Shown: in pieces, positions 1-21,297 of the stretch
Layout of the letters: each line of letters starts with the position of its first letter
Numbering within the stretch: the first letter of the stretch is position 1
Assembly (NCBI GenBank): GCA_900553985.1
Contig: USFW01000001.1
Location: 11,523 to 75,522 of the forward strand
Direction: 5' to 3'
DNA from: an uncultured Clostridium sp.
GTDB taxonomy: Bacteria; Bacillota; Clostridia; TANB77; CAG-508
DNA: 64,000 nucleotides
Notes under the pieces: generated by a model
What the model saw: only the letters and a program-made list of their open reading frames with translations
Database searches by the model: none
Told to the model about the DNA's origin: nothing
Translations under genes and position numbers: made by a program

Positions 1-84
1 TTCTATATAATCTACAACTTTATTTGATAACTCTTCTGGTAAACTTTCAATTACATTATATAATTCTTTTTGTTTCATTGTCAT
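1..84 (-). CDS. 5' end of a small ORF running off the window start (MTMKQKELYNVIESLPEELSNKVVDYIE...); partial
   Basis: Minus-strand ATG at 84 (alternative ATG at 78) preceded by a GGGAG RBS at ~94-98. Only ~28 codons are visible and there is no recognisable family. Confidence 0.25.
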   Translation of the reverse strand, partial: MTMKQKELYNVIESLPEELSNKVVDYIE

Positions 85-202
85 AATCATTCATCTCCCT
101 TTTTGAATTTATATTAATATTATACCACATTTTTGCTAAATTTCATTGATTTTTCAAATTCCTATCAATTTTTTATAACTTTCTATTACCTGTATTTTCT
201 TA

Positions 203-1126
203 TTAATTTCTTCTATCTATCGCATAACTACTTCCCATTACTGATTTTGCTGCATGTTTTACTTGTGCACCTATTTCTCCTATTTCAAGAATATTACTAA
301 ATCTACTTTTTTCTGCAACAACTACACCTATTGATATAGAGGTTAATGGAAATTGTTCAATTATTCCTTTTCTGTTTTCTACTTCAATATACCCTTTTTC
401 TATGTCTCCATCTGTAAAAAATTGCTTTACTTGATTGTCAAATATTGCTATTATATTTTGACATATCTTCTCACAATTTGTTGTTGGTACTATTGCTACA
501 AAGTCGTCTCCCCCAATATGTCCAACAAATGCACTTTCTTCTACATTTGCATGAACTCCTTTTAGTATTGTTTGTGCTGTAAATTCTATAATTTGGTCTC
601 CTTTTAAAAATCCATACACATCGTTATATGCTTTGAAATTATCCAAGTCCAAGTATAATACTGAAAAAGGCTCATTTTTAGATATTCTCTTTTTTAGTTC
701 TGCATGAATTTGTACATTACCTGGTAATCCTGTTAAAGGACTTATTCTTCTGTTAATTGATAATAATCTATTTAAATTTTTTACCGTATAGTACAAATAT
801 TCTTCATCTACTGGTTTTTTGATATAATATTCTATTGATTCTTTTAAAATTCTCATTCTATGTTCTTTTTCACTTCGAGATGAAACTACTATTACTGGAG
901 TTATTGTATTATCTTCATCTTTTCTTATTTGTCTACATAGATTTACAACATCTCTTTGAATAGCATCCTCATTTATTATTATCAATGCTGGTATATTTTT
1001 TAAAGCTACATCAATTTGCTCTGATTTTACACTTATGAATTTATATTCTTTATCATTTTTAAATAATTCTCTGAATATTACTATTGATGAATCATCATCA
1101 TCTATAATATAAATTTCTTGTTTCAT
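203..1126 (-). CDS. Response regulator with an N-terminal receiver (REC) domain and a C-terminal GGDEF (diguanylate cyclase-type) domain. The signature reads GGDDF rather than GG(D/E)EF.
   Basis: The N-terminus (MKQEIYIIDDDDSSIVIF...) is REC-like with acidic-pocket residues. The C-terminal half carries the GGDEF-family core ...FVGHIGGDDFVAIVP.... No RxxD I-site lies upstream of the motif. Confidence 0.7.
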   Translation of the reverse strand: MKQEIYIIDDDDSSIVIFRELFKNDKEYKFISVKSEQIDVALKNIPALIIINEDAIQRDVVNLCRQIRKDEDNTITPVIVVSSRSEKEHRMRILKESIEYYIKKPVDEEYLYYTVKNLNRLLSINRRISPLTGLPGNVQIHAELKKRISKNEPFSVLYLDLDNFKAYNDVYGFLKGDQIIEFTAQTILKGVHANVEESAFVGHIGGDDFVAIVPTTNCEKICQNIIAIFDNQVKQFFTDGDIEKGYIEVENRKGIIEQFPLTSISIGVVVAEKSRFSNILEIGEIGAQVKHAAKSVMGSSYAIDRRN

Positions 1127-1268
1127 TTAATCACACCCTAATTTCCAAAGTAAAATTATTATAACTTTTTAATAATAATTTTTTATTATAATACTTTTTA
1201 GTTTTAATAATTATTTTTATTTATATATCTTTTGCTATTTATATAGATTTAATTATCATTTACCTAAA

Positions 1269-2051
1269 TCATTCATTTTTATTTTTCTTATTTTTTAATT
1301 CTATTTTTCTATTTAATATATCTCTAAATTCTTTTGTATCAATTGCTGGGAATGCTCTTTTTAATCTATATACTCTTTTATATAATCTTCGTAATTCTCT
1401 ATTTTTCCTCTTATTTATTTTTTCAATTAATAATTGCAAATTTTCTGATGTTGTATTTTTTTCTTGATTTTGTTTCTTTATTTCTGCTAGTTTTTCTTTT
1501 ATTTGTTCATTTAATTTTTCTACTTTTTCTAATGTTCCTTTTATATTTTTAGTTTTTACAATACTGATTATAGCATCTGTTAAAATTAGTATTAATAGTA
1601 TAGGAACTATTATTTTTAAATATAATACATCAACATTTTTTAATAGATTTACTATAGCAGGATGTATAAAATCTATAAAAAGTACACCTAAAAATCCCCA
1701 AGCAATTGAGTTTGTTAAACAAATTCTTCCTTTATAATTAAATTTGTGATCTGAATAATCCCAATATTTTGTCTTAAATAATTTTTCTAATATTACTCCT
1801 ACTATATATTCCCATAAGCTTAAAAATATTATTGACATTATAAAAAGTAATATTTTAGAACTTGAAAAGTTCTTTAAAAAGAATATCATTATTATTGCCC
1901 CACATCCATATATAGGGCATATTGGACCTCTTAGAAAACCTGTATTTATTATTTTTTTCTCACAAAAACTTCTAAATATACTTTCTAAAACCCAACCTAA
2001 AAATGAATATATAATAAAATATGTTGATAATTCTAATAATTGTATCGACAT
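1269..2051 (-). CDS. Polytopic membrane protein, possibly DUF1113/CmpB-like, with a C-terminal K/E-rich coiled-coil tail
   Basis: There are about six predicted TM helices. Motifs FLGWVLE and GPICPIYGCGA resemble the GPxxPIYGxG signature of the putative ABC-transporter CmpB/DUF1113 family; that family name is recalled from memory, not searched. The last ~90 aa are K/E/N-rich. Confidence 0.45.
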   Translation of the reverse strand: MSIQLLELSTYFIIYSFLGWVLESIFRSFCEKKIINTGFLRGPICPIYGCGAIIMIFFLKNFSSSKILLFIMSIIFLSLWEYIVGVILEKLFKTKYWDYSDHKFNYKGRICLTNSIAWGFLGVLFIDFIHPAIVNLLKNVDVLYLKIIVPILLILILTDAIISIVKTKNIKGTLEKVEKLNEQIKEKLAEIKKQNQEKNTTSENLQLLIEKINKRKNRELRRLYKRVYRLKRAFPAIDTKEFRDILNRKIELKNKKNKNE

Positions 2052-2108
2052 TTATTTCCTTTCAATTAATTCTCTACACATAAATATGTAGAGAATTAAT
2101 ACTTGTAA

Positions 2109-3014
2109 TTATTTAGTTTTATTTGCTCTAGTTTTATCTGATTCAATTCCATCTAAATTGTATGCTATAATTTCAACTCTATTTTCCCCATCTTTTAATG
2201 GTAACTTTAATTTCATTTCTTTTTGTCCTTCATTTGCCGTTAAAGTTTTGTTTTCACCATTAATTATAAATTCTATTCTATCTAATCCTGAATCATCTGT
2301 AACTGTTATTAAAAAGTTTTCTTGTGCCTCATCTAATTTTACTTGTATTTTTGGTTTTACTACTCCTTTAACTTTTTGCTCTTTTGTTATAGTTTCATTA
2401 TTTTTATCTACTAGAATAACTGTTAAGGTATGCTCTCCCATTGGAATTTCTATTTCTTGCTCAACTGTTGTAGCATTTATATCAATTTTTTCTTCTTGCT
2501 CTTCATCCCATCTATATGTCATATATGAAATTTCTGTTTCTGCTTCTGCTGATACTTTAACTTTTCCATTATTTATTTCCATTTTTATTATATCTTCTGT
2601 TTCATATGTTTGCTCATTAGATATTTCCTGTCCTTCTATATCTGTAACAGAAACATGTAATTTATTAGTTCCTCCTGGTATCTCTATTTCTTGTTCTATA
2701 TATTTTCTTCCATTTCCAGTTATTATCTTTGATTCTTGTTCATTCCAACTATATTCTATTTTATCTATTGCTTTATCATGTGTTACTTTCAATAATACTG
2801 TTTTATCGTCTTTTTGTTCTTCCGTAATAGAAGGCTTTGTAGGAATGTTATTTTTATCTACTGATTTTTTATAAATCGCATATGAAGCTGTACTAATCAT
2901 TATAACTCCAAATATGATTAATATAATTGAAAAAAACTTTACAATAGTATTTATTTCTATTGGTCCACCTTTTTTATTTCTTTCTGAATTACTTGTAGAT
3001 AATATTTGATTCAT
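2109..3014 (-). CDS. Membrane-anchored secreted protein with three tandem ~70-aa Ig-like repeats
   Basis: An N-terminal TM/signal anchor (FFSIILIIFGVIMISTASYAIY) is followed by three repeats of the pattern ..IEYSW.E......EQEIEIP.G...L.V...D. The same repeat type occurs in the 1422-aa giant protein at 39859-44127. Confidence 0.55.
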   Translation of the reverse strand: MNQILSTSNSERNKKGGPIEINTIVKFFSIILIIFGVIMISTASYAIYKKSVDKNNIPTKPSITEEQKDDKTVLLKVTHDKAIDKIEYSWNEQESKIITGNGRKYIEQEIEIPGGTNKLHVSVTDIEGQEISNEQTYETEDIIKMEINNGKVKVSAEAETEISYMTYRWDEEQEEKIDINATTVEQEIEIPMGEHTLTVILVDKNNETITKEQKVKGVVKPKIQVKLDEAQENFLITVTDDSGLDRIEFIINGENKTLTANEGQKEMKLKLPLKDGENRVEIIAYNLDGIESDKTRANKTK

Positions 3015-3110
3015 ATACTCACCTCTATACCTTTCTTCAAAAAATTATATCATACCTAAAATTAAAAGTAAACATTATTCAAGTAAAATTCGATAACTTT
3101 AAAAAGAATT

Positions 3111-3160
3111 GATTTTACTGATTTTGGAGTCGTGATTTTGGGGTCGGAGACAAAAATCAT
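3111..3160. repeat. Copy 1 of the dispersed GC-rich palindromic element: 1.5 units, ctGATTTTGGagtcg + TGATTTTGGGGTCGGAGACAAAAATCAT
   Basis: Core ATGATTTTGGGGTCGGAGACAAAAATCAT is an imperfect palindrome. The same element recurs at 3341, 7463, 14411, 31092 and 59211. It is much more GC-rich than its surroundings. Confidence 0.8.
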
Positions 3161-3280
3161 TTACTTAAAATAAATATAAGAAAAGCTATTATAGGTCTTT
3201 TTAAAGGTTACTTTTACTTGTTGTATACAGAAAAATCCTATATAAGTTCAAGATAAAAGTCAATTTTTCCTACACAATAA

Positions 3281-3324
3281 AAAAACTAGAAATTTAACAT
3301 TTTAGTTAAATTTCTAGTTTTCAT
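3281..3324. terminator. Bidirectional rho-independent terminator downstream of adhesin paralogue A
   Basis: AACTAGAAATTT ... AAATTTCTAGTT perfect 12-bp stem flanked by an A-run 5' and a T-run 3'. Confidence 0.6.
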
Positions 3325-4670
3325 TATATTATAAACTTGAATGATTTTTGTCTCCGTCCCCAAAATCATTGAAAACATTTTTCTTTGGCTCCCAAAACAT
3401 GACTCCAAGGTTAGATTCCACAATTATTCTACATTACATATTTTTTTATTAAGAATATTCCTCCTGCTATTGTTACTAGTACTACTATTCCTAATCCTAC
3501 ATATGTTATTGCTTTACCTGTTTCTATTGATAATATTACTGGTGCATCATCTATATCATCTTCTCCTGGCTTTTTATTGTCTGGGGTTGAGTCTCTATCT
3601 GGTACTCCTTTGTCATTATAGTCTTTTGATATTTCTGCTATATTTGTTTTTAGTCCCATATTATCTTCTCTATTTATCCATGTTAATAACACTTCTACAT
3701 CTGCTGATTCTCCTGGTTGTAATAATGTGTTTTCTAATTTTGTTGTTGATATTATATTGTTTCCTTCATCTTTCCAATATGGATTATCTTCTGCTACAAA
3801 TTTTAACCCTTCTGGTACATAGTCTGTTATTTCTTTTACATATCCTGCTATGTCTCCTTCATTTGTTACTCTTATTGAGTATCTGAATTTTACTGTTACT
3901 TGATTTATGTCTTTTCTATATAATTCTACTTTTACTACTGGTTCTGGATCCATATCTGGTGTATGTCCTGTTTGAGTTACTGTTTGTTTTCCATCTTCTA
4001 TTACTATTGCTTCTGTTACCCATTTTCTTAATGCCAAGTCAAAATATCTTAATTTTATGTATTCTTTATCTTGGTCATCTTCTCCTTCTACCCATTTGTC
4101 TGGTGTTGAATCTTTATCTTCTACTGGATTTCCTTCTTTATCACTATCTTCTGATATTTGTGCTGAATTTATTATTACCTTATCTGATCCATTTGGTTCT
4201 ACTACTTCAAATGCTACCTCTATATCTCTATGATCTGGATTTGTTTCACTTATTTCTTCATTTTTATTAAATGCTTTTAATAAGTTTTCTCCTTCTTTTT
4301 CTTCTTGCTCTTTTGATAAGTAATCTGTTGTTATTTTTTCTGCTTCTTCTACATTTTCTGTCTCTTTTCCTTCTTTATCATACATTACCCATCTATATTT
4401 TACATTTGTTTCATTTTCTGGTAAGAATTTTAACCCATCTGGTATATCATCTGATACTAGTTGTGCATATCCATCAATATCTCCTTCGTTATATACTCTT
4501 ATTGTATAGGTTACTATATCTCCTGTTACTACATCCATTGGATCTTTTGGATGATTATATGTTATTTTGTCTTTTTCTTTATCATAACTTACTTCTGGTA
4601 TTCTTGTTGTTACATCTTTTCCATCTATATTTGTTATGAATTTTCTTAAGGCTAAGTCAAATTCTTGTAC
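3320..4670. repeat. Copy A of a ~1.35 kb near-identical direct duplication. It covers the 3' ~1.24 kb of adhesin gene A plus ~110 bp of downstream sequence.
   Basis: The nucleotide sequence is identical to 7442-8792 except for a handful of substitutions (for example 4431 and 4590-4600). The encoded C-terminal ~410 aa of the two proteins differ at only 2 residues. Confidence 0.85.
3341..3400. repeat. Copy 2 of the palindromic element (reverse orientation; variant CCGTCCCC) plus a degenerate half unit
   Basis: ATGATTTTTGTCTCCGTCCCCAAAATCAT is followed by tttggctcccaaaacat. With copy 1 it forms an inverted pair flanking ~180 bp. Confidence 0.75.
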
Positions 4671-7202
4671 TATAACTTTTTCAAAATCGTCATCATCTTC
4701 TTGTCCAGGAACATATTCTTTATTTATTTCTTCATCTTTATATGATGGTAGTTTTTCATCTGATGGTATTGTTATTTTACTTGGATCTGAATCTATATCA
4801 TCTACTTCTTTTCCGTTTGCATCAGCATCTTTAGTTATTGCAGCTATATTGGTTAATTTTTTGTTTGTTTCTGCTGTATTTTTTACTTTACAAGCTACTT
4901 GTAAATCTTTATAATCTAATTTCTCACCATCAAATGCTTTTATTAAATTTTTTCTTTCTGAATTTTCTTTAGCTTTTGATAAATAATCTGTTGTTATAGT
5001 TCTTCCGTCTTTTCCAAGTACCCATTCATATTTTTTATTTATAGCATTATCTGTTAAAAATTCTAATTCTTCTGGTAAAAAGTCTGTTACTTCTTCTACA
5101 TACCCATCTAATTGCCCTTCATTATATACTCTTATTGTATATATTATTATATCATTTTTAGCAACATAAAGTTCTTTTTTCGGATGATTATATACAGAAG
5201 TTGTATCTGTTTTATCTTTTAAATTTGTCACATCAACTTTTGGAACTCTATCATATTTTTTATCATTTACATTTGTTATAAATTTTCTTAATGATAGATC
5301 AAAGTTTTTTATTTTCTCATTTCCTACTTTTATTTTTATAGTATTTCCTTCTACCTTTACACTAGTTCCTTCTACTTGCCCTGTTTTTATTGTTGCATTT
5401 TTTAGTGTATATTTTCCATTACTATTTTGTTTTTCTACTTCTATTGTCATTGTGTCTAAAATTTTGTTATATCCTTCTGGGGCTTTTGTTTCTTTTACTT
5501 GTATTGTATCTTTTGTTGTTACATCTTCAATTTTTACTGTTCCTAAGTCTAAAATCCCATTTTCTCCTGTTCCCTTTTTAGTTGGCTCTTTTCCTGGTAA
5601 TGTTACTTCAAACTCTGCTCCTGCTAATTTTATTGATGGATCATCTTTGTCTACTTTTTCTAATTGTATTTGATAATTTCCTGTAATTTGTTCAATTCTT
5701 AATTTTTCAAAGTCATCGTCATCTTGCTCACCTTTATAGAAATAATTTGGGTCTTCTAATTCTGATTTATTTGAATTATTTCCTTTATATTCTGACATAT
5801 TATCTTTATTTACATTAGGTGCTGTTGTTGGCTCAGAATCTCTATCTGCCCCTTTTTGATTTGTTATTATTGTTCCATTTGCATCTACTTCTTCAGAAAT
5901 CCATGCTACATTTGTTAAAATTTTAGTTTCATTATTTGCTTCAACTGTACATTCAATTTCTATTGTTTCATATGCAATATTTTCTCCTGTATATGGTGCC
6001 AAATTATTGTTTTCTGTTTTAGTTATCGTTATTTTATTAGTTGCTTTATCATAATTTGCAGTATATCCTGTTGTATTTATCTTAGAATATACTAATCCTG
6101 TTGGTAATTGGTCAATTATCTTAGTTGCTCTACCTTCTATATCTCCTTCATTGTAAATTGTAAGATTATATGTAACAACATCTCCATTTTTTACTAAAAT
6201 AGGTTCTTTTCTATGTTTATATGTTGCTGTTGTTCCATTATCTAATGTAGTTTTATCTATTGAAGGATTTCTTGTATTGGTAACATTATTTCCATTTACT
6301 TTAGTTATATATTTTCTTAATGCTAAATCAAATTCCTGTGGAATTCTTTCTATATCCATTAATGGTTGTTCTTGATTATTTTTGCTTGATGCATATAATG
6401 TCAATTTTGATCTATGATTTGAATTACCTGAGTTTGCTTTTGCAGTATCAATTAAATATTTATATAATACTTCTGCTTGTTCTTGTCTTTGATGTCCAGC
6501 ACTTGCATTTGGTACTGTTCCTGTCGGATTATAATCACTTAAATTCTTATAAGTTGATCCATTTTCTGTATACCATAACCAAGCTGTATTACTATATTTA
6601 TCATATTTGTTTCCTTCTTCTCCATAATTAGTAAAATACCATATTGCGGCTTGTTGTACTGCTTTTATTTCATCATCTGTTATATCAAAATCATATGCTT
6701 CGTCATAAATTCCAGCATTATTAAGTAAAGTTGTTCTTTCTGATTGCTCAGATTGACCTGGTAAATATAATAGATCTGCCAAAGCTAATAGTTCATCATA
6801 ATGACCATTATTTACTAATCCATTTAATACTGAATTTTGTACTGCTATTTGCTGTTTGTCTTTTATCATATCAAATTTCAAGTCATATTCTGCTGTTTTC
6901 TTTGTATCACTAAATCCTACTCCTGCTTTTACACAATATACATTTACTTCAGTTGGATCTGCAAAATTAGAATTACTATATTTTACTATATTCCAAATTT
7001 TAGCTGCTGACCCTGTTACTCCATTTGTATTTGGATCTCCTATTGCATATCCTAAGTTTGGTGTTGATAAAGTTCTTAGTTCAGTTATTCCAAAATATAA
7101 TGGTGGTGACATTGTTTCTGCAATTACTGTACTAAACAATATTCCTGAAATTAAAAATAATATTAAAACTAAACTTACAATTATTAATCTACAATTTTTC
7201 AT
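3429..7202 (-). CDS. Large cell-surface adhesin, paralogue A. Domain order: signal peptide, candidate thioester (TQXA-type) domain, DUF11 module, CnaB-type domain, three further DUF11 (TIGR01451-like) modules, then a C-terminal sorting-signal-like tail (SIETG + TM + KKYVM).
   Basis: The likely true start is the ATG at 7202 (MKNCRLIIVSL...) with an AGGAGAG RBS 6 nt upstream; the ORF track extends to 7229. The mature N-terminus contains YCVKAG and IKAVQQAAIWYFTNYGEE, consistent with the Cys and TQxA(I/V)W Gln motifs of Gram-positive thioester domains. Segment YQIQLEKVDKDDPSIKLAGAEFEV...ETKAPEGYNK matches the CnaB-type consensus. The unit ...TYTIRVYNEGDIDGYAQLVSDDIPDGLKF... recurs and matches the DUF11/conserved-repeat domain. 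Each module is preceded by an acidic linker (EQDDDDFEK) and FDLALRK. Confidence 0.8.
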   Translation of the reverse strand: MKNCRLIIVSLVLILFLISGILFSTVIAETMSPPLYFGITELRTLSTPNLGYAIGDPNTNGVTGSAAKIWNIVKYSNSNFADPTEVNVYCVKAGVGFSDTKKTAEYDLKFDMIKDKQQIAVQNSVLNGLVNNGHYDELLALADLLYLPGQSEQSERTTLLNNAGIYDEAYDFDITDDEIKAVQQAAIWYFTNYGEEGNKYDKYSNTAWLWYTENGSTYKNLSDYNPTGTVPNASAGHQRQEQAEVLYKYLIDTAKANSGNSNHRSKLTLYASSKNNQEQPLMDIERIPQEFDLALRKYITKVNGNNVTNTRNPSIDKTTLDNGTTATYKHRKEPILVKNGDVVTYNLTIYNEGDIEGRATKIIDQLPTGLVYSKINTTGYTANYDKATNKITITKTENNNLAPYTGENIAYETIEIECTVEANNETKILTNVAWISEEVDANGTIITNQKGADRDSEPTTAPNVNKDNMSEYKGNNSNKSELEDPNYFYKGEQDDDDFEKLRIEQITGNYQIQLEKVDKDDPSIKLAGAEFEVTLPGKEPTKKGTGENGILDLGTVKIEDVTTKDTIQVKETKAPEGYNKILDTMTIEVEKQNSNGKYTLKNATIKTGQVEGTSVKVEGNTIKIKVGNEKIKNFDLSLRKFITNVNDKKYDRVPKVDVTNLKDKTDTTSVYNHPKKELYVAKNDIIIYTIRVYNEGQLDGYVEEVTDFLPEELEFLTDNAINKKYEWVLGKDGRTITTDYLSKAKENSERKNLIKAFDGEKLDYKDLQVACKVKNTAETNKKLTNIAAITKDADANGKEVDDIDSDPSKITIPSDEKLPSYKDEEINKEYVPGQEDDDDFEKVIVQEFDLALRKFITNIDGKDVTTRIPEVSYDKEKDKITYNHPKDPMDVVTGDIVTYTIRVYNEGDIDGYAQLVSDDIPDGLKFLPENETNVKYRWVMYDKEGKETENVEEAEKITTDYLSKEQEEKEGENLLKAFNKNEEISETNPDHRDIEVAFEVVEPNGSDKVIINSAQISEDSDKEGNPVEDKDSTPDKWVEGEDDQDKEYIKLRYFDLALRKWVTEAIVIEDGKQTVTQTGHTPDMDPEPVVKVELYRKDINQVTVKFRYSIRVTNEGDIAGYVKEITDYVPEGLKFVAEDNPYWKDEGNNIISTTKLENTLLQPGESADVEVLLTWINREDNMGLKTNIAEISKDYNDKGVPDRDSTPDNKKPGEDDIDDAPVILSIETGKAITYVGLGIVVLVTIAGGIFLIKKYVM

Positions 7203-7402
7203 ACTAATCTCTCCTATATAATATACCATATATATTATACCTTATTTTTGCATATTTTTCAATGCTATCCTCTATAATTGTCAGCATTTACAATTATTAT
7301 AGGATTTTTTTCTTAGGGATTTTTAATTTAAAACCTTTTTTACTTTTTTATTACAAAAATTTTTTGATAATAATTTTATAATTAGAAATTAAAACAAATA
7401 TA

Positions 7403-7446
7403 AAAACCAGAAATTCAGCTTTTTAAGTTGAATTTCTGGTTTTCAT
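7403..7446. terminator. Rho-independent terminator downstream of adhesin paralogue B
   Basis: ACCAGAAATTCAGC ... GTTGAATTTCTGGT is a 14-bp stem with one mismatch, followed by a T-run. It sits at the same position as the terminator after paralogue A. Confidence 0.6.
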
Positions 7447-8792
7447 TATATTATAAACTTGAATGATTTTTGTCTCCGTCCCCAAAATCATTGAAAACAT
7501 TTTTCTTTGGCTCCCAAAACATGACTCCAAGGTTAGATTCCACAATTATTCTACATTACATATTTTTTTATTAAGAATATTCCTCCTGCTATTGTTACTA
7601 GTACTACTATTCCTAATCCTACATATGTTATTGCTTTACCTGTTTCTATTGATAATATTACTGGTGCATCATCTATATCATCTTCTCCTGGCTTTTTATT
7701 GTCTGGGGTTGAGTCTCTATCTGGTACTCCTTTGTCATTATAGTCTTTTGATATTTCTGCTATATTTGTTTTTAGTCCCATATTATCTTCTCTATTTATC
7801 CATGTTAATAACACTTCTACATCTGCTGATTCTCCTGGTTGTAATAATGTGTTTTCTAATTTTGTTGTTGATATTATATTGTTTCCTTCATCTTTCCAAT
7901 ATGGATTATCTTCTGCTACAAATTTTAACCCTTCTGGTACATAGTCTGTTATTTCTTTTACATATCCTGCTATGTCTCCTTCATTTGTTACTCTTATTGA
8001 GTATCTGAATTTTACTGTTACTTGATTTATGTCTTTTCTATATAATTCTACTTTTACTACTGGTTCTGGATCCATATCTGGTGTATGTCCTGTTTGAGTT
8101 ACTGTTTGTTTTCCATCTTCTATTACTATTGCTTCTGTTACCCATTTTCTTAATGCCAAGTCAAAATATCTTAATTTTATGTATTCTTTATCTTGGTCAT
8201 CTTCTCCTTCTACCCATTTGTCTGGTGTTGAATCTTTATCTTCTACTGGATTTCCTTCTTTATCACTATCTTCTGATATTTGTGCTGAATTTATTATTAC
8301 CTTATCTGATCCATTTGGTTCTACTACTTCAAATGCTACCTCTATATCTCTATGATCTGGATTTGTTTCACTTATTTCTTCATTTTTATTAAATGCTTTT
8401 AATAAGTTTTCTCCTTCTTTTTCTTCTTGCTCTTTTGATAAGTAATCTGTTGTTATTTTTTCTGCTTCTTCTACATTTTCTGTCTCTTTTCCTTCTTTAT
8501 CATACATTACCCATCTATATTTTACATTTGTTTCATTTTCTGGTAAGAATTTTAATCCATCTGGTATATCGTCTGATACTAGTTGCGCATATCCATCAAT
8601 ATCTCCTTCGTTATATACTCTTATTGTATATGTTACTATATCTCCTGTTACTACATCCATTGGGTCTTTTGGATGATTATATGTTATTTTATCTTTTTCT
8701 TTATCATAACTTGCTTCAGGCACTCTTGTTGTTACATCTTTTCCATCTATATTTGTTATGAATTTTCTTAATGCTAAATCAAATTCTTGTAA
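7442..8792. repeat. Copy B of the ~1.35 kb near-identical direct duplication (3' end of adhesin gene B plus downstream sequence)
   Basis: See 3320-4670. The offset between the copies is 4122 bp. Confidence 0.85.
7463..7522. repeat. Copy 3 of the palindromic element (lies within the duplicated block; identical to copy 2)
   Basis: ATGATTTTTGTCTCCGTCCCCAAAATCAT + degenerate half unit. Confidence 0.75.
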
Positions 8793-11018
8793 CATTATAT
8801 TGTCATAATCTTCATCATCTTCATATTTTACCCATTCTTCTGGTTTTGAATCTCTATCCTCTACTGGATTTCCTTCACTATCTGAGTCGTCTGTAATTGC
8901 TGCTTCATTTCTTATAATACCAATACCTGGGTCTGTTGCAACAACTTTTAATATTACTGAAACTTCTCTGTAATCTGGATTTCTATTATCTTTTTCATCA
9001 CTATATGGTTTAGATGAATCAAACGCTTTTATTAAATTTGCTCCTTTAGTTGTTATTTCTTCTCCTTTTCCTTTAGCTAAATAGTCTGTCGTAATTTTAG
9101 AAGAGTCTCCTTTAACATATGTCCATCCCATTTTTGTATTATATTCTACTGCTGCTAATTCCTCTTTATCAGTTATAGGATTCATATCTTTATCAATAGT
9201 TGCTCCTAAGAATTCTAATCCTTCTGGAATATCTTCTGTTATTTGAGAAGCATATCCATCAATTTCTCCTTCATTATATATTCTTAAAGTATATTTTACT
9301 AAATCACCTGTTTTTACAGAAACTGGTTCTTTATTTAATTGGTAATCTGCTGTTGTTGCAGTTCCATTTGCTAATTTAGTTATATCTACACCTTGTATTC
9401 TTTCTTTTACTTTCTTGTCATTTACTTCTACTATTCTTTTAACAAGTTTTAAATCAAAATCTTTCTTTTCTATTATTGTTTCTTTTTTTACTATTAGTTT
9501 CTCAAAGTCATCATCATCTTGCTCACCCTTGTAAAAATAATTTGAATCAGCTAATTCTGTTTTATTTTGAGAGCTACCTTTATAATTGTCCATATTATCT
9601 TTATTTACATTTGGAATTGTTGCAGGTTCTGAATCTCTATCTTTTCCAACTTGATTTGTAATTATTACATCATTTGCATCTACTTCTTCTGCTATATATG
9701 CTACATTTGTTAAAATTTTATCTTTTTCATCACTTGTAACCACTGCTTCTATTTCAATAGTTTCTGAATCTATTTTTCCTTTAGTATATGCTTTTAAGTT
9801 TTGTCTATTATCTTGTTTCTTTGTAAGTGTCAATGTATTTGTTTCTTCGTTATAGTCTACCTCATAACCTTGTGTATTTATTTTTGAATATTTTAACCCT
9901 GTTGGTAATTGATCAACTATTTTTGTTGCTCTTCCATCAACTTCACCTTCATTATATATAGTCAAATTATATGTAACAACTGTATCTTTTTTTACTTCTA
10001 TCGGATCTTTTCTGTGTTTATATGTTGCTGTTGTTCCATCTTCTAAAGTTTTTTCATCTATAACTGGTACTCTAGAACTTGTAACATTTACTCCATTTAT
10101 TTTTGTTATATATTTTCTTAAGGCTAAATCAAATTCTTGAGCTTGTCTTTCTATTTCCATTAATGGCTGCTCTTGATTGTTTTTACTTGATGCATATGAT
10201 GTTAATTGTGTTTTATAATTTCCATTTGGATCTGTATAATTATTAGCATTTTTATTTGCTGTATCTATTAAATATTTATATAATAATTCTGCTTGTTGTT
10301 GTTTTTGGAAACCTGCACTAGCATTTGGTACTGTATTTGTTGGATTATATTCACTAAAATTTTTATATGTGCTTCCATCTTCTGTATACCATAGCCAAGA
10401 TGTATTATCATATTTATCATATTTATTATTTTCTTCTCCATAATTAGTAAAATACCACATTGCTGCTTGTTGAATTGCTTTTATTTCATCATCTGATAAT
10501 TCAAATCCCCAAGCTTCTTTATATATTCCTGCATTTTCTAATAAAGCATTTTTTTCTGCTTCTGTTGAAACTCCTGGTAAATATACTAAATCAGCAAGTG
10601 CTAAAAGATTATTATAATGTCCACCATTGACAAGTTTATTTAATATATCATTTTGTTTTGCTATTTCCTCTCTTTCTGTATACATATCAAAACTTAAATT
10701 ATATTCTGCATTTTTCTTGACATCACTAAATCCAACTCCAGCTTTTACACAATATACGTTTACTTCTTTAGGATCATTAAAGTTACTGCTATTGTATTGA
10801 ACTATATTCCAAATTTTAGCTGCTGATCCAGTTACACCATTTGAGTTTGGATCTCCTATTGCATATCCTAAATTTGGTGTTGATAGTGTCCTTAATTCTG
10901 TTATTCCAAAATACAATGGTGGATTAAGTGTCATTGCTTTAGCTATATTAGGTAATAACATTAGTACTACTGTTATTAATGTTGATAAACTTGCTAATAA
11001 TACTCTTTTTAATTTCAT
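7551..11018 (-). CDS. Large cell-surface adhesin, paralogue B. Domain order: signal peptide, candidate thioester domain, four DUF11 modules, then the same SIETG sorting-signal-like C-terminus. It lacks the CnaB-type insert of paralogue A.
   Basis: The start at 11018 has an AAGGAG RBS 8 nt upstream. The signal peptide is MKLKRVLLASLSTLITVVLMLLPNIAKA. Motifs YCVKAGVGF and IKAIQQAAMWYFTNYGEE are present. The N-terminal ~470 aa are ~75% identical to paralogue A and the C-terminal ~410 aa are near-identical. Confidence 0.8.
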   Translation of the reverse strand: MKLKRVLLASLSTLITVVLMLLPNIAKAMTLNPPLYFGITELRTLSTPNLGYAIGDPNSNGVTGSAAKIWNIVQYNSSNFNDPKEVNVYCVKAGVGFSDVKKNAEYNLSFDMYTEREEIAKQNDILNKLVNGGHYNNLLALADLVYLPGVSTEAEKNALLENAGIYKEAWGFELSDDEIKAIQQAAMWYFTNYGEENNKYDKYDNTSWLWYTEDGSTYKNFSEYNPTNTVPNASAGFQKQQQAELLYKYLIDTANKNANNYTDPNGNYKTQLTSYASSKNNQEQPLMEIERQAQEFDLALRKYITKINGVNVTSSRVPVIDEKTLEDGTTATYKHRKDPIEVKKDTVVTYNLTIYNEGEVDGRATKIVDQLPTGLKYSKINTQGYEVDYNEETNTLTLTKKQDNRQNLKAYTKGKIDSETIEIEAVVTSDEKDKILTNVAYIAEEVDANDVIITNQVGKDRDSEPATIPNVNKDNMDNYKGSSQNKTELADSNYFYKGEQDDDDFEKLIVKKETIIEKKDFDLKLVKRIVEVNDKKVKERIQGVDITKLANGTATTADYQLNKEPVSVKTGDLVKYTLRIYNEGEIDGYASQITEDIPEGLEFLGATIDKDMNPITDKEELAAVEYNTKMGWTYVKGDSSKITTDYLAKGKGEEITTKGANLIKAFDSSKPYSDEKDNRNPDYREVSVILKVVATDPGIGIIRNEAAITDDSDSEGNPVEDRDSKPEEWVKYEDDEDYDNIMLQEFDLALRKFITNIDGKDVTTRVPEASYDKEKDKITYNHPKDPMDVVTGDIVTYTIRVYNEGDIDGYAQLVSDDIPDGLKFLPENETNVKYRWVMYDKEGKETENVEEAEKITTDYLSKEQEEKEGENLLKAFNKNEEISETNPDHRDIEVAFEVVEPNGSDKVIINSAQISEDSDKEGNPVEDKDSTPDKWVEGEDDQDKEYIKLRYFDLALRKWVTEAIVIEDGKQTVTQTGHTPDMDPEPVVKVELYRKDINQVTVKFRYSIRVTNEGDIAGYVKEITDYVPEGLKFVAEDNPYWKDEGNNIISTTKLENTLLQPGESADVEVLLTWINREDNMGLKTNIAEISKDYNDKGVPDRDSTPDNKKPGEDDIDDAPVILSIETGKAITYVGLGIVVLVTIAGGIFLIKKYVM

Positions 11019-11341
11019 ATTTTACACTCCTTTTAATCTATTTTACACTATTATTTTATTTAGTCAACATAGATTTCTCATCATTTTTTATATTAATTTT
11101 TTTCATATTATAATTCCTTACGGAATGCAAACTTTTGCATTTTCTCTTTATTTTTTTCACACATTACAATTATATTACATTTATATCTCAAAATCAAGCA
11201 TTTATGTAAATTATACGTGTTCTATCACTATTTCCCTACATTTTGATTATTTGCAATATCCATCAAAATATTTCTATAATTATCTCTAAAAACTTATCAT
11301 ACTTCCTTAAATTTTTTATATTATATATAAGAGGTATTTTT

Positions 11342-12622
11342 ATGAAAAAAAATAAAAAATTGTTAAAAATATTTATTATATTCATTTTCATTATTTTTAT
11401 ATTTACAAGTTCATTTGCAGATGATATTCCACTGCAAGAAGAAGATTTTGATATTGCATCATATCTAAGAACTAGTGATTATCTTGAAACTTCTTCTCCA
11501 ACTCAACAATTTCCATCAATAAATTCTAGAGCATATGTTGTACTTGATAGAAAAACTAATACAGTTTTAGTTGGAAAAAATGAATATTCAAGAAAAAAAA
11601 TGGCTTCCACTACTAAAATAATGACTGCAATAGTAATTATTGAAAATTATAATTTAAATGAAACAGTAACAATTAGTAAAAAAGCTTCCAACACTGGAGG
11701 ATCTAGATTAGGTTTAAAAACAGGAGATAAAATTACTGTAAATGATTTATTATATGGTTTGATGCTTCGCTCTGGAAACGATGCAGCAGTTGCATTAGCT
11801 GAGTATGCTTCTGGTTCTATTGAAAATTTTGCGGAATTAATGAATAAAAAAGCATTGGAATTAAATTTACTTAATACTAATTTTGTTACTCCTCACGGTT
11901 TAGATCAGGATGAACACTATACTACAGCATATGAGTTAGCATTGTTAACAAATTATGCTTTAAATAATAAAACTTTTGCTAAAATAGTTGGATCTAAAAC
12001 TTTTGCTATAACTATAAATGGATATTCAAAAGAACTTTCTAATACTAATGAATTATTAGGAAACTTTGATGGAATTTATGGAGTAAAAACAGGATTTACT
12101 AATGGTGCTAATCGTTGTTTAGTTACTGCTTGTAAACGAGATGATAAGGATATAATTTGTGTGGTTTTAGGTGCTGATACTAAAAAATTTAGAACTCAAG
12201 ATAGTATCAAACTTTTAAATTATGCATTAAATAATTTTACATATGTTGCTATTAATAAAATAATTGAAGATAAATTTAATAGATGGATTGAAAATAACAA
12301 TGAATATTTTAATGTTTATAAAGGAATTAATAATAATTTGAGTTTATCTTGCCCTAAATTACAATATGATAAAATTCCTGTTAAAATAGATCAAATTGAT
12401 AAGATTAATATTTCTATAAATTGTAATGGTAAGTTAATTGCACCTATCTACAAAAATTATGTGGTTGGAACTCTAACTGTTTTAGTGGATGATAAGATTC
12501 TTTATTCTTTGGATATTTGTAGTGAATGTTGTATTAATAAAAAAGATATGATTGATTATTTAAAAACCTTTTTTAAAAACTTTTCAACTTACATTAACTT
12601 AGAAAATTTATTTTTTAAATAA
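11342..12622 (+). CDS. dacB: Serine-type D-alanyl-D-alanine carboxypeptidase (PBP5/S11 family)
   Basis: Motifs SxxK (ASTTKIMTA), SGN (LRSGND) and KTG (VKTGFT) are present, with an N-terminal signal peptide. The likely start is the ATG at 11342 (MKKNKKLL...) with an AAGAGG RBS. The ORF track begins upstream at 11243 but has no RBS there. The gene symbol is by family resemblance only. Confidence 0.8.
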   Translation: MKKNKKLLKIFIIFIFIIFIFTSSFADDIPLQEEDFDIASYLRTSDYLETSSPTQQFPSINSRAYVVLDRKTNTVLVGKNEYSRKKMASTTKIMTAIVIIENYNLNETVTISKKASNTGGSRLGLKTGDKITVNDLLYGLMLRSGNDAAVALAEYASGSIENFAELMNKKALELNLLNTNFVTPHGLDQDEHYTTAYELALLTNYALNNKTFAKIVGSKTFAITINGYSKELSNTNELLGNFDGIYGVKTGFTNGANRCLVTACKRDDKDIICVVLGADTKKFRTQDSIKLLNYALNNFTYVAINKIIEDKFNRWIENNNEYFNVYKGINNNLSLSCPKLQYDKIPVKIDQIDKINISINCNGKLIAPIYKNYVVGTLTVLVDDKILYSLDICSECCINKKDMIDYLKTFFKNFSTYINLENLFFK

Positions 12623-12691
12623 TTTTAATATTAAGCTTATTTTAATTTTACATAAAAAGCTAAAAATTATATCCTGTTTCATATGTAATAA

Positions 12692-12734
12692 TAAAAAGGG
12701 ATTTAAAGAATAACATTTCCTTAATCCCTTTTTT
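12692..12734. terminator. Bidirectional terminator shared by convergent dac and acpP
   Basis: AAGGGATT ... AATCCCTT stem with T-runs on both strands. Confidence 0.6.
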
Positions 12735-12977
12735 CTATTTTACATTTTCTTTTATGTAGTCAACTACATCTCCTACTGTTACAACTTTTTCAGCATCACT
12801 ATCTGGAATTTCTATATCAAATTCTTCTTCTAATGCCATAACTAATTCAACTATATCTAATGAATCAGCTCCTAAATCATCTATGAAAGATGCTTCCATT
12901 GTTACAGCTGTATCAGCAACACCTAATTGTTCAACAATTATTCCTTTTACTTTTTCTAAAACTTCTTCTGAACTCAC
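12735..12977 (-). CDS. acpP: Acyl carrier protein
   Basis: 80 aa with the [25 protein letters not shown] phosphopantetheine-attachment motif (DSLD). Confidence 0.9.
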
Positions 12978-13004
12978 TTCTCGAGTTCACCTCCTCTCAA
13001 GTTT

Positions 13005-13093
13005 ATAAATGATATATTCATTTGTTTTTTAGTAACTAAACTTTTAATTAAATACTAAAACTAAAATAAAGTTACAAATGATATATTCATTTG
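13005..13093. promoter_or_regulatory. Two copies of a 19-bp near-palindrome (cAAATGAtatatTCATTTg), ~70 bp apart, in the 303-bp plsX-acpP spacer
   Basis: Copy at 13005-13024 and copy at 13075-13093. Each has 7-bp perfect inverted arms AAATGA(n5)TCATTT embedded in a ~30-bp direct repeat (aagtttataaatgatatattcatttg / aagttacaaatgatatattcatttg). It is a candidate operator upstream of acpP. Confidence 0.4.
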
Positions 13094-13280
13094 ATTTCTT
13101 TCATATATATGTTCATTTATATTATATGATTACTATTTTGTCAAGTAAATTACTAAAATATTTTATATTTGTACTGTTAAGTCATATTTATATGAATTAT
13201 ATTAAATTTATAAAGCTATTATAAATTTAAAGTTTTACTTTTTATTCAAAATAACTAATTTTTAATTATTCCTATATAAA

Positions 13281-14339
13281 CTAATTTTTGTTAATCTCTT
13301 CTTTATCTCTTTGTTTTTCAAATTCTTCTATCATTTTATCAACAGCTTTATTTTCCACAAATTTTTCTGCTTGTATTAATGTGTATTCAAATAATAAACT
13401 ATCACTACTTCCATGTGCTTTAACAACTGGTTTTTTTACACCTAAAAATAAAGCTCCACCATATGATTTGTAATCCATAACCTTGCTAAATCTTTTAATT
13501 GCTGGAAGTGCTGGTATTGACAATATTTTTGATAATAAATTTTTGGTAAAACTCTCTGTTAATGATCTCTTTACAAACTTTCCTAATCCTTCTGTAGTCT
13601 TTAAAAACACATTTCCTGTAAATCCATCTGTTACTATTGCATTTATTTTTCCTGAAAAAGCATCTCTTCCTTCCACATTTCCTACAAAATTTATATCTAA
13701 TTCTTCTGATTTTTCTTTTAGCAATTTATAACTTTCTTTTACTAATTCATTACCTTTAGTTTCTTCTGTTCCTATGTTTAATAATCCTATTGTAGGTTTT
13801 TCAATTCCATATGTATTCTTTAAATATATGCTTGACATTTGTGCAAATTGTAAAAGGTTTATTGGCTTACAATTTGTATTAGAACCTGCATCTATTAATA
13901 ATAATTGACTTTTATATGCTGGTAATATTCCTGCTAATGCTGGTCTATCTATTCCTTTTATTCTTCCTACTAAAAGTGTTGCCCCTGTCAATAAAGCTCC
14001 TGAATTTCCTGCTGAAATAAAAACATCTCCTTCTCCTTCTTTAAGCATTTTAAATCCCACAACCATTGAAGAATCTTTTTTATGCTTAATTGCAACAGTT
14101 GGAGTATCTGTCATCTCTATTGTTTCAGTAGCATTTCTTATCTTTAACCTATCAGAAACTTCTTCTATTTCTTTCCCTGTAAATTCTTTTATTTTCTTCC
14201 TAATTATTTCTTCTTTACCAATTAAAATAACTTCTGCCTTTATTTTATTTATAGCATTTAATGCCCCTTTGATATTTGCATCAGGTGCATTATCTCCCCC
14301 CATAGCATCTAATAAAATTTTCACTTTAAATTCCTCCAT
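13281..14339 (-). CDS. plsX: Phosphate acyltransferase PlsX
   Basis: N-terminal KILLDAMGGDNAPD motif and full-length similarity to PlsX. Confidence 0.9.
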   Translation of the reverse strand: MEEFKVKILLDAMGGDNAPDANIKGALNAINKIKAEVILIGKEEIIRKKIKEFTGKEIEEVSDRLKIRNATETIEMTDTPTVAIKHKKDSSMVVGFKMLKEGEGDVFISAGNSGALLTGATLLVGRIKGIDRPALAGILPAYKSQLLLIDAGSNTNCKPINLLQFAQMSSIYLKNTYGIEKPTIGLLNIGTEETKGNELVKESYKLLKEKSEELDINFVGNVEGRDAFSGKINAIVTDGFTGNVFLKTTEGLGKFVKRSLTESFTKNLLSKILSIPALPAIKRFSKVMDYKSYGGALFLGVKKPVVKAHGSSDSLLFEYTLIQAEKFVENKAVDKMIEEFEKQRDKEEINKN

Positions 14340-19692: not shown

Positions 19693-21297
19693 TTATCTTT
19701 CTTTGCTTTCTTGCTCTTGCATTATTTCTTTAACACTATTAGCTAATTCTCTTTCACTTTCTTTTTGTGCCATAGCTGCTCTAGCCTTTTCTTCTATTTT
19801 AGAATCTTTATTAGGTATTTTTTGTACAAAATCTCTACCTTTGCTTTTTACTGTTTGATATTTTTCTTGAGAGAACTCTTTTATTTTAGCTGTTTTATCC
19901 TTTGCAGTTTCTTTAGCTGTCTCTGCTAGTGCCTTTGTCTTTTCTTTTGCTATTATTGCACTATTTTTATCAAACAATTTTCCACATATATATGCTCCTG
20001 CTTTTTCTTCTGCTTTCACAAATCTATTCAACTTGATTTTTGAAAGCAGATTTGTATTTAATAAATTATGTACTAAATCAAATGGTAAATTTTTCTTTTC
20101 AGATATGCTATTTATATATTCTTTTAACTGATCTGTATTATGTTCTAGTACTGCTACTACTTCAGGGTTTATTTTTCTTTTTAAAAGAGCTCCTTTTATT
20201 CTTCCTCCTGCAATTTCTTTACACATATCAGAAATTCCAAGTCTTTTGAATTTTTCTTTTTTCTCTTCTAATACTTGCTGTATAGAAATAGTATGTTCTT
20301 GTTCATCTCCATCAATATAGTAATTAATATTTCCTTCTTTTTCTAATATTTCAATATATTTAACAGCTCTGTCTTTTTTCTCTCCCATTTGTTCATTTGA
20401 TCTTCCAGTTGTCACTTTACTTTCTTTAATCATTTGATCTATTCTTCTAACATCTGTTATATTTCTATTATCATTTTCCATTTGATTATATACATTATTT
20501 ATAGCATTTTCAATTTCAAATGTATTTTTAGGTTGTTGCTTCTGTTTATTTATACTTACTTTATCTACATATGGTCCCGCTTCTAAATGAATATTTCCAT
20601 AGTTTCTATTTTGTTCTTCTGTTTCTTTTTGTATCTCTTTAATAATTTCTTCTGTTGATTTTGTTTGATTTTGAGTATCTTTTTCTTGTTTATATTCAGT
20701 TTTTGTTTCTTTTTCTTGTTTCTCTTCAATTTTCGTTTCTTTTTGTTCTTTGTTTTCAGTCTTAGTTTCTTTTTCTTCTTTAATTTGAGCTTTAACATTA
20801 TATTTACTCATCATTTTATCAACATCTGATTTCAAAGTTTTTAATTCTTTTTCCTGTTTTACTATTCCCAACAACTTGCTATTCAATTCTCCGTTAATCT
20901 TTTCCAAGTCTTTTTCATATTCTAATAAAACTGGTGTTTTGGTGAATTTACCTTCTGAAAAAGAATATTTTCCTTGTTCTTCTTTTATTGCCTCTTCACA
21001 TTCTTTTTTATTTATAGTTAATTTTTTTACTATCTTCTTTTCCTCAGAAATTTCTTTCTCTTTTTTCTGTTTATCCTTAAGAATCTCTCTGTCTTTCACT
21101 ATGTTATCTAGTTCTTTTTCAATTTTTGTTAAATCTTTCTCACATTCACTCTGTTCAGTTGTCTTTTCAAACTTTCCTTCGTTAAGTTCCATCTTGTGTT
21201 TGTTTATTTCTTCTTCAATAACTTTTTGTAATTCTTCTTTATTTTTATTTAAACTTTTTTCATTTTTATCCATTATCTCAAGTAACTTTTCTTCCAT
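19693..21297 (-). CDS. Hypothetical K/E-rich coiled-coil protein with an internal ETKTE-type tandem repeat; no TM segment
   Basis: 534 aa of highly charged low-complexity sequence. A central block reads KEEKETKTENKEQKETKIEEKQEKETKTEYKQEKD. There is no recognisable catalytic motif. Confidence 0.5.
   Translation of the reverse strand: MEEKLLEIMDKNEKSLNKNKEELQKVIEEEINKHKMELNEGKFEKTTEQSECEKDLTKIEKELDNIVKDREILKDKQKKEKEISEEKKIVKKLTINKKECEEAIKEEQGKYSFSEGKFTKTPVLLEYEKDLEKINGELNSKLLGIVKQEKELKTLKSDVDKMMSKYNVKAQIKEEKETKTENKEQKETKIEEKQEKETKTEYKQEKDTQNQTKSTEEIIKEIQKETEEQNRNYGNIHLEAGPYVDKVSINKQKQQPKNTFEIENAINNVYNQMENDNRNITDVRRIDQMIKESKVTTGRSNEQMGEKKDRAVKYIEILEKEGNINYYIDGDEQEHTISIQQVLEEKKEKFKRLGISDMCKEIAGGRIKGALLKRKINPEVVAVLEHNTDQLKEYINSISEKKNLPFDLVHNLLNTNLLSKIKLNRFVKAEEKAGAYICGKLFDKNSAIIAKEKTKALAETAKETAKDKTAKIKEFSQEKYQTVKSKGRDFVQKIPNKDSKIEEKARAAMAQKESERELANSVKEIMQEQESKER

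Follow-up and report, generated by a model that had tools for sequence, protein, structure and literature searches.

Which kind of surface protein is encoded by two long genes lying side by side in the genome of an uncultured Clostridium species, and by what chemistry such proteins may hold on to their targets, are the questions raised by a 64,000-nt stretch of contig USFW01000001.1 (positions 11,523 to 75,522, assembly GCA_900553985.1), which is referred to here as the window. An earlier sequence-only reading of this DNA had placed two large adhesin genes in it, and both are indeed present on the minus strand. It is likely that their products, A and B, are fibrillar adhesins that leave the cell by the Sec route and belong to the thioester-isopeptide-ester (TIE) proteins: each has a signal peptide, read from the sequence, followed by an N-terminal thioester domain (TED) and a series of tandem isopeptide domains. 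The layout of B is that of A minus one CnaB domain, and residue numbers of A refer throughout to its longest open reading frame (ORF), of 1266 aa.

3429-7202, minus strand: gene A, probable 1257-aa product with signal peptide, TED, DUF11 module 1, CnaB/SpaA domain, DUF11 modules 2 to 4 and a sorting-like signal
7551-11018, minus strand: gene B, 1155 aa, with signal peptide, TED, four DUF11/CLIPPER modules and a C-terminal sorting-like signal

The first step towards an answer is the identity of the N-terminal head, in which the following domains and residues were located.

6342-7112, minus strand: thioester domain of A, residues 40-296
6933-6935, minus strand: Cys99 of A, in the YCVKAG motif
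6651-6653, minus strand: helix Gln193 of A
6639-6641, minus strand: helix Trp197 of A
6366-6368, minus strand: candidate bond-forming Gln288 of A, in NNQEQPLM
10143-10928, minus strand: thioester domain of B, residues 31-292
10749-10751, minus strand: Cys90 of B, in the YCVKAG motif
10467-10469, minus strand: helix Gln184 of B
10167-10169, minus strand: candidate bond-forming Gln284 of B, in NNQEQPLM

The YCVKAG motif and the helix motif (V/I)QQAA(I/M)W (VQQAAIWYFTNYGEE in one head and IQQAAMWYFTNYGEE in the other), on which the sequence-only reading had based its assignment of a thioester domain, are found in both translations, and the assignment itself is supported by profile and predicted fold. 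The Pfam TED model (PF08341) matches A at 27.6 bits and B at 23.6 bits against a gathering score of 22, which is a small margin for B, whose match spans residues 88-256. An AlphaFold model of the head, based on an alignment of 31 relatives (alignment A1), was obtained with a predicted local distance difference test score (pLDDT) of 91.9 and a predicted template modelling score (pTM) of 0.92, and shows the beta-barrel and three-helix bundle of the TED fold. When this model was compared with PDB structures using Foldseek, the only significant matches were the thioester domains of Cpa, SfbI, FNE and CpTIE, with Cpa as the best. In the model, YCVK lies on the strand at residues 58-60 and QQAAIW on the long central helix at residues 146-161, while helix alpha-3 is followed by an 8-residue linker and the last two strands, the final one starting with the candidate Gln. 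As modelled, this layout of motifs is the class I topology described by Miller 2018 (PMC6194298), in a head enlarged by additional helices and a hairpin to approximately 260 aa.

The earlier reading had taken the Gln of the helix motif as the partner of the Cys. This pairing is not supported, because the helix Gln and Trp of the published TQxxPhiW motif merely hydrogen-bond the Cys backbone and are dispensable (Walden 2015, PMC4450167; Miller 2018, PMC6194298), and in published TEDs the thioester Gln sits on the last beta-strand (PMC4450167, PMC6194298). In the predicted fold, the candidates for the bond-forming residue are Gln288 of A and Gln284 of B. Of 93 complete heads in GTDB species representatives, 92 keep [YFL]C and 88 have, at the last-strand site, a Gln followed by Pro or Ala and two hydrophobic residues (xQ[PA]-hydrophobic-hydrophobic), and the Cys and the helix Gln and Trp are invariant in alignment A1. 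Moreover, Cys90 is the sole Cys among the 1155 residues of B. After folding, Cys99 (A) or Cys90 (B) would join Gln288 or Gln284 as an internal thioester, against which the QQAA(I/M)W helix would pack; a target nucleophile, typically a Lys amine, would then attack the thioester, forming an amide link to the Gln and hence a covalent attachment at the tip of the adhesin.

Several results weigh against the assignment of A and B to TIE adhesins. TIGR03934 (TQXA_dom) reaches only 15.9 bits in A, below its cut-off of 30.4, and has no match in B at E<=1. At the first position of the helix motif, the T of the published TQxxPhiW is exchanged for Q, and the strand motif E-Q-P-L-M fits the published Phi-Q-zeta-Phi-Phi only loosely. 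The Foldseek TM-scores are modest (0.41-0.54), because the head is approximately 60-85 residues larger than the solved TEDs. Sequence searches of the PDB retrieved no TED or CLIPPER structure, whether the query was the full protein, the TED profile or a single DUF11 module, which is why the domain was placed by its fold. At the other end of the chains, LPXTG, which TIE proteins almost always carry, was not found at the C-termini of A and B (LSIETG being present instead), and among the ORFs of 100 aa or longer no genuine one with the sortase signature T[LIV]xTC was found, either in the window or in the 72 related loci that were kept from a distribution scan of one genome per GTDB species.

Considering the shortfall of TIGR03934, the departures in the helix and strand motifs and the enlargement of the head, it might be supposed that the head has a TED fold without a reactive thioester, being a domain that binds non-covalently or one that retains its Cys and Gln for some other purpose, and that A and B are ordinary non-covalent fibrillar adhesins. 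We regard this as improbable. The Cys and the strand Gln are retained in nearly all heads counted above, B keeps its single Cys, and the bond was formed in 12 of 12 predicted TEDs assayed by Walden 2015 (PMC4450167).

Differences among the heads of relatives were also observed. BaTIE of Bacillus anthracis (6FWV) consists of a TED, three CnaB isopeptide domains and LPATG, and its TED belongs to class II, with a beta-sandwich between alpha-3 and strand P, an insert that A and B do not have. An insertion of approximately 110 aa between helix alpha-3 and strand P is present in P0023 as well as in P0015, P0019, P0025 and P0043, where it occupies the BaTIE beta-sandwich position (A1 columns ~418-520), and is partial in P0027, P0032 and P0042. 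This is the exact site of the class II TED beta-sandwich, and judging from the alignment, one adhesin family may span both published TED classes.

If the head is the reactive tip, the second step concerns what carries it. The stalk domains of the two proteins are as follows.

5694-6338, minus strand: DUF11/CLIPPER module 1 of A, candidate triad K306 / D373 / N440, DxDSxP at residues 462-467, acidic tail DDDDFEK
5310-5693, minus strand: CnaB/SpaA-type domain of A, residues 513-640, candidate triad K525 / E580 / N637
4674-5309, minus strand: DUF11/CLIPPER module 2 of A, candidate triad K649 / D716 / N794
3552-4667, minus strand: DUF11/CLIPPER modules 3 and 4 of A, candidate triads K863 / D927 / N1021 and K1069 / D1136 / N1196
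7674-10139, minus strand: DUF11/CLIPPER modules 1-4 of B, candidate triads K302 / D369 / N438, K527 / E595 / N704, K752 / D816 / N910 and K958 / D1025 / N1085

The remainder of each protein is built from DUF11 modules, as the earlier reading had recognized: four stretches per protein match Pfam DUF11 (PF01345; 76.8 and 84.3 bits, cut-off 24.6), and four matches to TIGR01451 are found in each (69.6 and 86.3 bits, cut-off 24). DUF11 was renamed CLIPPER in 2025, and its crystal structure 9IFR shows a stabilising Lys-Asn isopeptide bond (K715 / D748 / N806; PMC12617251). The CnaB-type domain previously noticed in A is detected by the SpaA/CnaB-type model PF17802 in A only, at 35.9 bits in the whole protein and 41.4 bits in the isolated segment (cut-off 23.1), and has a weak pilin match to 6m7c; its candidate triad, placed by motif only, occupies the usual K/E/N positions. 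A model of module 3 of A (pLDDT 84) has an isopeptide-type immunoglobulin (Ig) fold, and the stalk domains resemble pilin domains such as RrgB, SpaD and BcpA.

All eight DUF11 modules of A and B begin with FDLxL[RV]K, and all eight contain a candidate triad consisting of the Lys of this motif, an acid located 3 residues before an invariant Pro (the D/E of the xxP.[GE]L motif) and the Asn of N.A.I, with Glu instead of Asp in module 2 of B. An alignment of 117 modules shows no variation at K, N-E-G, P, N.A.I and D.DS, K being part of the pattern by which the modules were picked. A native module matches the Pfam DUF11 profile only from position 12; when the 29 aa after FDLALRKFIT are removed, the match begins at position 1 and the score rises from 29.9 to 34.5 bits. 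FDLxLRK therefore reads as the canonical Lys-bearing first strand, followed by what appears to be a family-specific hairpin insertion. A second conserved Lys (Y-x-H-x-K, approximately 32 residues before the Asp, a spacing that matches 9IFR) was considered as the isopeptide Lys and set aside, because FDLALRK falls on profile positions 1-9, and the score is higher, once the insertion is deleted. Compared with CLIPPER 9IFR (PMC12617251), the modules of A and B measure 160-215 aa and have two insertions: a beta-hairpin of approximately 30 aa directly behind the Lys strand, and a large, variable segment ahead of the Asn strand.

Each module closes with DxDSxP, which is invariant, and then an acidic cluster; both are conserved among the modules of this family, to which the comparison was confined. 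The sequence-only reading had described FDLALRK and an acidic linker as preceding every module, of which the first part holds for all eight modules and the second does not: module 1 directly follows the TED, module 2 of A follows the CnaB domain, and the first DDDDFEK of A precedes the CnaB domain. This cluster is more aptly called a module tail than a linker in front of the next module. In the proposed mechanism, four DUF11/CLIPPER modules, together with one CnaB/SpaA domain in A, would hold the tip off the cell, and the candidate residues present in every stalk domain could generate a Lys-Asn isopeptide bond by themselves.

The likeness of the stalk domains to those of RrgB, SpaD and BcpA raises the question of whether A and B might be pilus subunits, that is, a Cpa-like tip adhesin and a second pilin polymerised by a pilus-specific sortase. 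The genes are arranged in tandem, and the best Foldseek match of the head, Cpa, is a TED-bearing pilus tip adhesin. This explanation was nevertheless rejected as very unlikely: no class C sortase or T[LIV]xTC ORF is present nearby, either in the window or in the 72 syntenic loci, the neighbours are housekeeping genes (PBP5, plsX and EF-Tu) and not those of a pilus islet (no search for a pilin motif was made), the head type and the anchor are common to both paralogues, and the lengths of family members, up to 2936 aa, are typical of monomeric fibrillar adhesins.

If A and B are monomeric TIE adhesins, the third step is how they are retained at the cell surface. Both end in the same signal.

3432-3551, minus strand: C-terminal sorting-like signal of A, DDAPVI-LSIETG-KAITYVGLGIVVLVTIAGGIFLI-KK-YVM
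7554-7673, minus strand: C-terminal sorting-like signal of B, identical to that of A

An LS[IV]xTG-type motif, a hydrophobic helix and a basic tail are present in all 68 complete family members, in which the six motif positions are occupied by L (65 members), S (64), [IV], [ESGK], T (68) and G (68). It resembles the C. difficile SrtB signal (S/P)PxTG and the NVQTG of CbpA in combining xxxTG, a hydrophobic helix and basic residues (PMC4155245), sharing the Ser at -3 with SPxTG and the aliphatic residue at -2 with NVQTG; unlike (S/P)PxTG, the motif here, LS[IV][ES]TG, has no Pro. Judging from its three parts, LSIETG, hydrophobic helix and KK, it is most likely a sortase-type wall-sorting signal or, failing that, a membrane anchor. 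Besides the adhesins, an 807-aa Listeria-Bacteroides-repeat protein of the same clade (L054, 13973-16396) ends in a canonical LPNTG, a helix and a basic tail, so that two different xTG signals are in use in the clade, which probably has a sortase.

The alternative is that the C-terminal helix is a permanent membrane anchor and LS[IV]xTG an uncleaved juxtamembrane segment, in which case the adhesin would not be linked to peptidoglycan. Besides the missing LPXTG, no Pfam or NCBIfam anchor model matches A or B at E<=1, the T[LIV]xTC scan of the window and the 72 loci (approximately 1 Mb) returned only three spurious antisense ORFs, and C. difficile SrtB, which accepts (S/P)PxTG, did not cleave the Pro-less NVQTG in vitro (PMC4155245). 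On the other hand, the T-G pair is invariant in the 68 complete members and stands in the classical order of motif, helix and basic tail, the LPNTG protein of L054 makes a clade sortase probable, and a stalk of approximately 1000 residues fits a wall-spanning, wall-linked protein. A permanent membrane anchor is a serious possibility, but a less likely one than wall sorting.

The two genes also have to be explained as a pair, since they share a long repeat.

3298-4673, no strand assigned: near-identical 1376-nt repeat, copy 1 (copy 2 at 7420-8795)

In both genes, the repeat takes in the final two stalk modules and the anchor and continues for approximately 130 nt into the 3' flank past the stop codon. 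Its copies differ by 19 mismatches in 1376 nt (98.6% identical), none of which falls between 3317 and 4433 (1117 nt). Repeats of this kind often mislead short-read assemblers, and the tandem duplication might be regarded as an assembly artefact of a single gene. We rejected this possibility as extremely remote, given that the same arrangement of two genes (1155 aa and 1257 aa) is seen in two contigs assembled from other samples, a polished one of 1.54 Mb (ENA ERZ27273428, contig_2323_polypolish) and one of 129 kb, of which the polished contig in particular indicates that it is not an artefact, that tandem pairs or triplets are found in many other species of the clade and that the heads of A and B differ by approximately 30%. 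At the protein level, A and B show 98% identity over their final 424 residues, compared with 69-70% for the heads. Together with the 1376-nt repeat, this difference suggests that gene conversion has acted on the stalk and anchor while the tips diverge, and two diverged heads on a homogenised stalk and anchor suggest two target specificities.

Are A and B then something new? The published definition of a TIE protein is a TED followed by a stalk of isopeptide domains and a C-terminal sorting signal (Walden 2015, PMC4450167). This definition fits A and B, whose C-terminal signal is sorting-like, and a member of the >=90%-identity cluster of B (MBS6253013.1) is already named 'Cys-Gln thioester bond-forming surface protein' by NCBI; for these reasons, both proteins are filed under a known type. 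The earlier view that the architecture is unusual does not hold up, considering this fit and naming, the fact that DUF11 is already an established isopeptide domain (PMC12617251) and the frequency of the family in its clade. The finding is well founded but unsurprising, and leaves the current understanding of TIE adhesin function unchanged.

A and B do depart from the textbook form in their mostly CLIPPER stalk, QQxxPhiW helix, head of approximately 260 aa and LS[IV]xTG signal. The class I TIEs, such as CpTIE/Cpe0147 of C. perfringens (5A0G), SfbI of S. pyogenes (5A0L) and Cpa, have heads of 175-205 aa, a TQxxPhiW helix, stalks of CnaB or Thr-Gln ester domains and an LPXTG anchor, and their sequence identity to A and B is only 13-18%. 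We have considered two further-reaching readings of these departures: LS[IV]xTG could be a dedicated sorting signal read by a sortase of unusual specificity or another transpeptidase, and, independently of this, the enlarged QQxxPhiW head could be a new TED subclass with a gut-specific target, for example mucin, another microbe or a dietary polymer. If the head were such a subclass, the two diverged heads on a homogenised stalk would imply two specificities within it. These proposals are speculative and, on balance, unlikely.

To our knowledge, work on covalent attachment to hosts or particles through thioester domains has been confined almost entirely to pathogens such as streptococci, C. perfringens and B. 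anthracis. Here, the TED machinery is a conserved chromosomal feature of uncultured gut Clostridia, located beside plsX and EF-Tu, and one of the genomes bearing the adhesins is approximately 1.5 Mb. The locus is a good candidate for a colonisation factor of an uncultivated lineage, and may also serve as a source of new self-reactive protein parts, with one TED and five predicted isopeptide domains in one chain. In addition, the Pro-less xTG signal, which all 68 complete family members from this clade of small-genome gut Clostridia carry, alongside LPNTG on another surface protein, poses a concrete question on sortase specificity.

The distribution scan yielded 220 relatives, and all 72 kept loci belong to metagenome-assembled genomes of uncultured gut Clostridia/Bacillota from human, chicken, rabbit and mouse. 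More than 60 species-level genomes have one to three adhesin copies. The gene order is syntenic, with more than 200 relatives placed at this same locus, comprising EF-G, EF-Tu, plsX, acpP, a divergent PBP5-type carboxypeptidase, one to three TED adhesins and then a Big_7-like membrane protein, CmpB and a GGDEF response regulator. Across the loci, EF-Tu is 91-100% identical, compared with 46-95% for the TED heads. Family members range from approximately 1080 to 2936 aa by expansion of the stalk, and the 2936-aa member (L055, 771-9578) contains a TED, seven Cna_B domains, one SpaA domain and at least six DUF11 modules.

With regard to gene starts and transcription, the longest ORF of gene A (3429-7229, minus strand) encodes 1266 aa, and its most likely start is the ATG at 7202 (MKNCRLII..., 1257 aa), because a GGAGA ribosome-binding site and a promoter-like site lie just upstream and gene A was called at 1257 aa in an independent assembly (L073). 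A GGAG ribosome-binding site precedes the ATG of gene B at 11018, and the exact B sequence is present in NCBI/ENA.

7262-7234, minus strand: promoter-like site of gene A, TTGAAA-17-TATAAT, by consensus match only
7403-7443, minus strand: palindromic terminator-like hairpin after gene B, listed on the plus strand and followed by TTTTTAT on the minus strand
3281-3322, minus strand: terminator-like hairpin and T-run after gene A

Since a hairpin with a T-run lies behind each gene, A and B are probably transcribed separately. The genes further downstream of the adhesins encode a response regulator with a GGDEF domain (203-1126, minus strand), a CmpB-type membrane protein (1269-2051, minus strand) and a 301-aa membrane protein with weak Big_7/Ig-like repeats (2109-3014, minus strand), and each of these is also found behind the adhesins in 13-16 related loci. 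A link of cyclic di-GMP (c-di-GMP) to adhesin expression is conceivable. The nearby GGDEF regulator had suggested control by a c-di-GMP riboswitch as in C. difficile, an idea that was dropped as an Rfam scan (E<=1, positions 1-13500) found neither this riboswitch nor any other Rfam family upstream of A or B, returning two sub-threshold chance matches. On the other side of the pair, a PBP5-type D-Ala-D-Ala carboxypeptidase (11243-12622, plus strand) is divergent from gene B and syntenic with the adhesins in 63 of the 72 loci. L073-L075 have it as two separate ORFs of 268 and 151 aa, suggesting a frameshift or pseudogene in those assemblies.

A split of the adhesin gene itself was observed in two other species, in which the orthologous gene is interrupted (L009, 5096-6271 and 6186-8606; L010, 8827-10002) within DUF11 module 1 by a frame change of 1 nt (...TAT TCA C|GG AAT AAA...). 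The split lies at a CGG codon, whose rarity at 27% G+C is an expectation only. The upstream product of 392 aa is represented by 15 database members located on 9 contigs, P0003 and P0005 have the same out-of-frame tail at the split, and the downstream frame is intact to the anchor. The frame change may represent a pseudogene, an assembly error or a programmed +1 frameshift.

Finally, two ORFs of the window are unrelated to the adhesins. One (19693-21297, minus strand) encodes 534 aa, is rich in Lys and Glu, lies beside ribosomal protein genes and looks coiled-coil-like, with no Pfam match on record in L073; the other (23385-26822, minus strand) encodes 1145 aa and, by its appearance, a SNF2-family helicase-like protein with an N-terminal SWIM-like motif.

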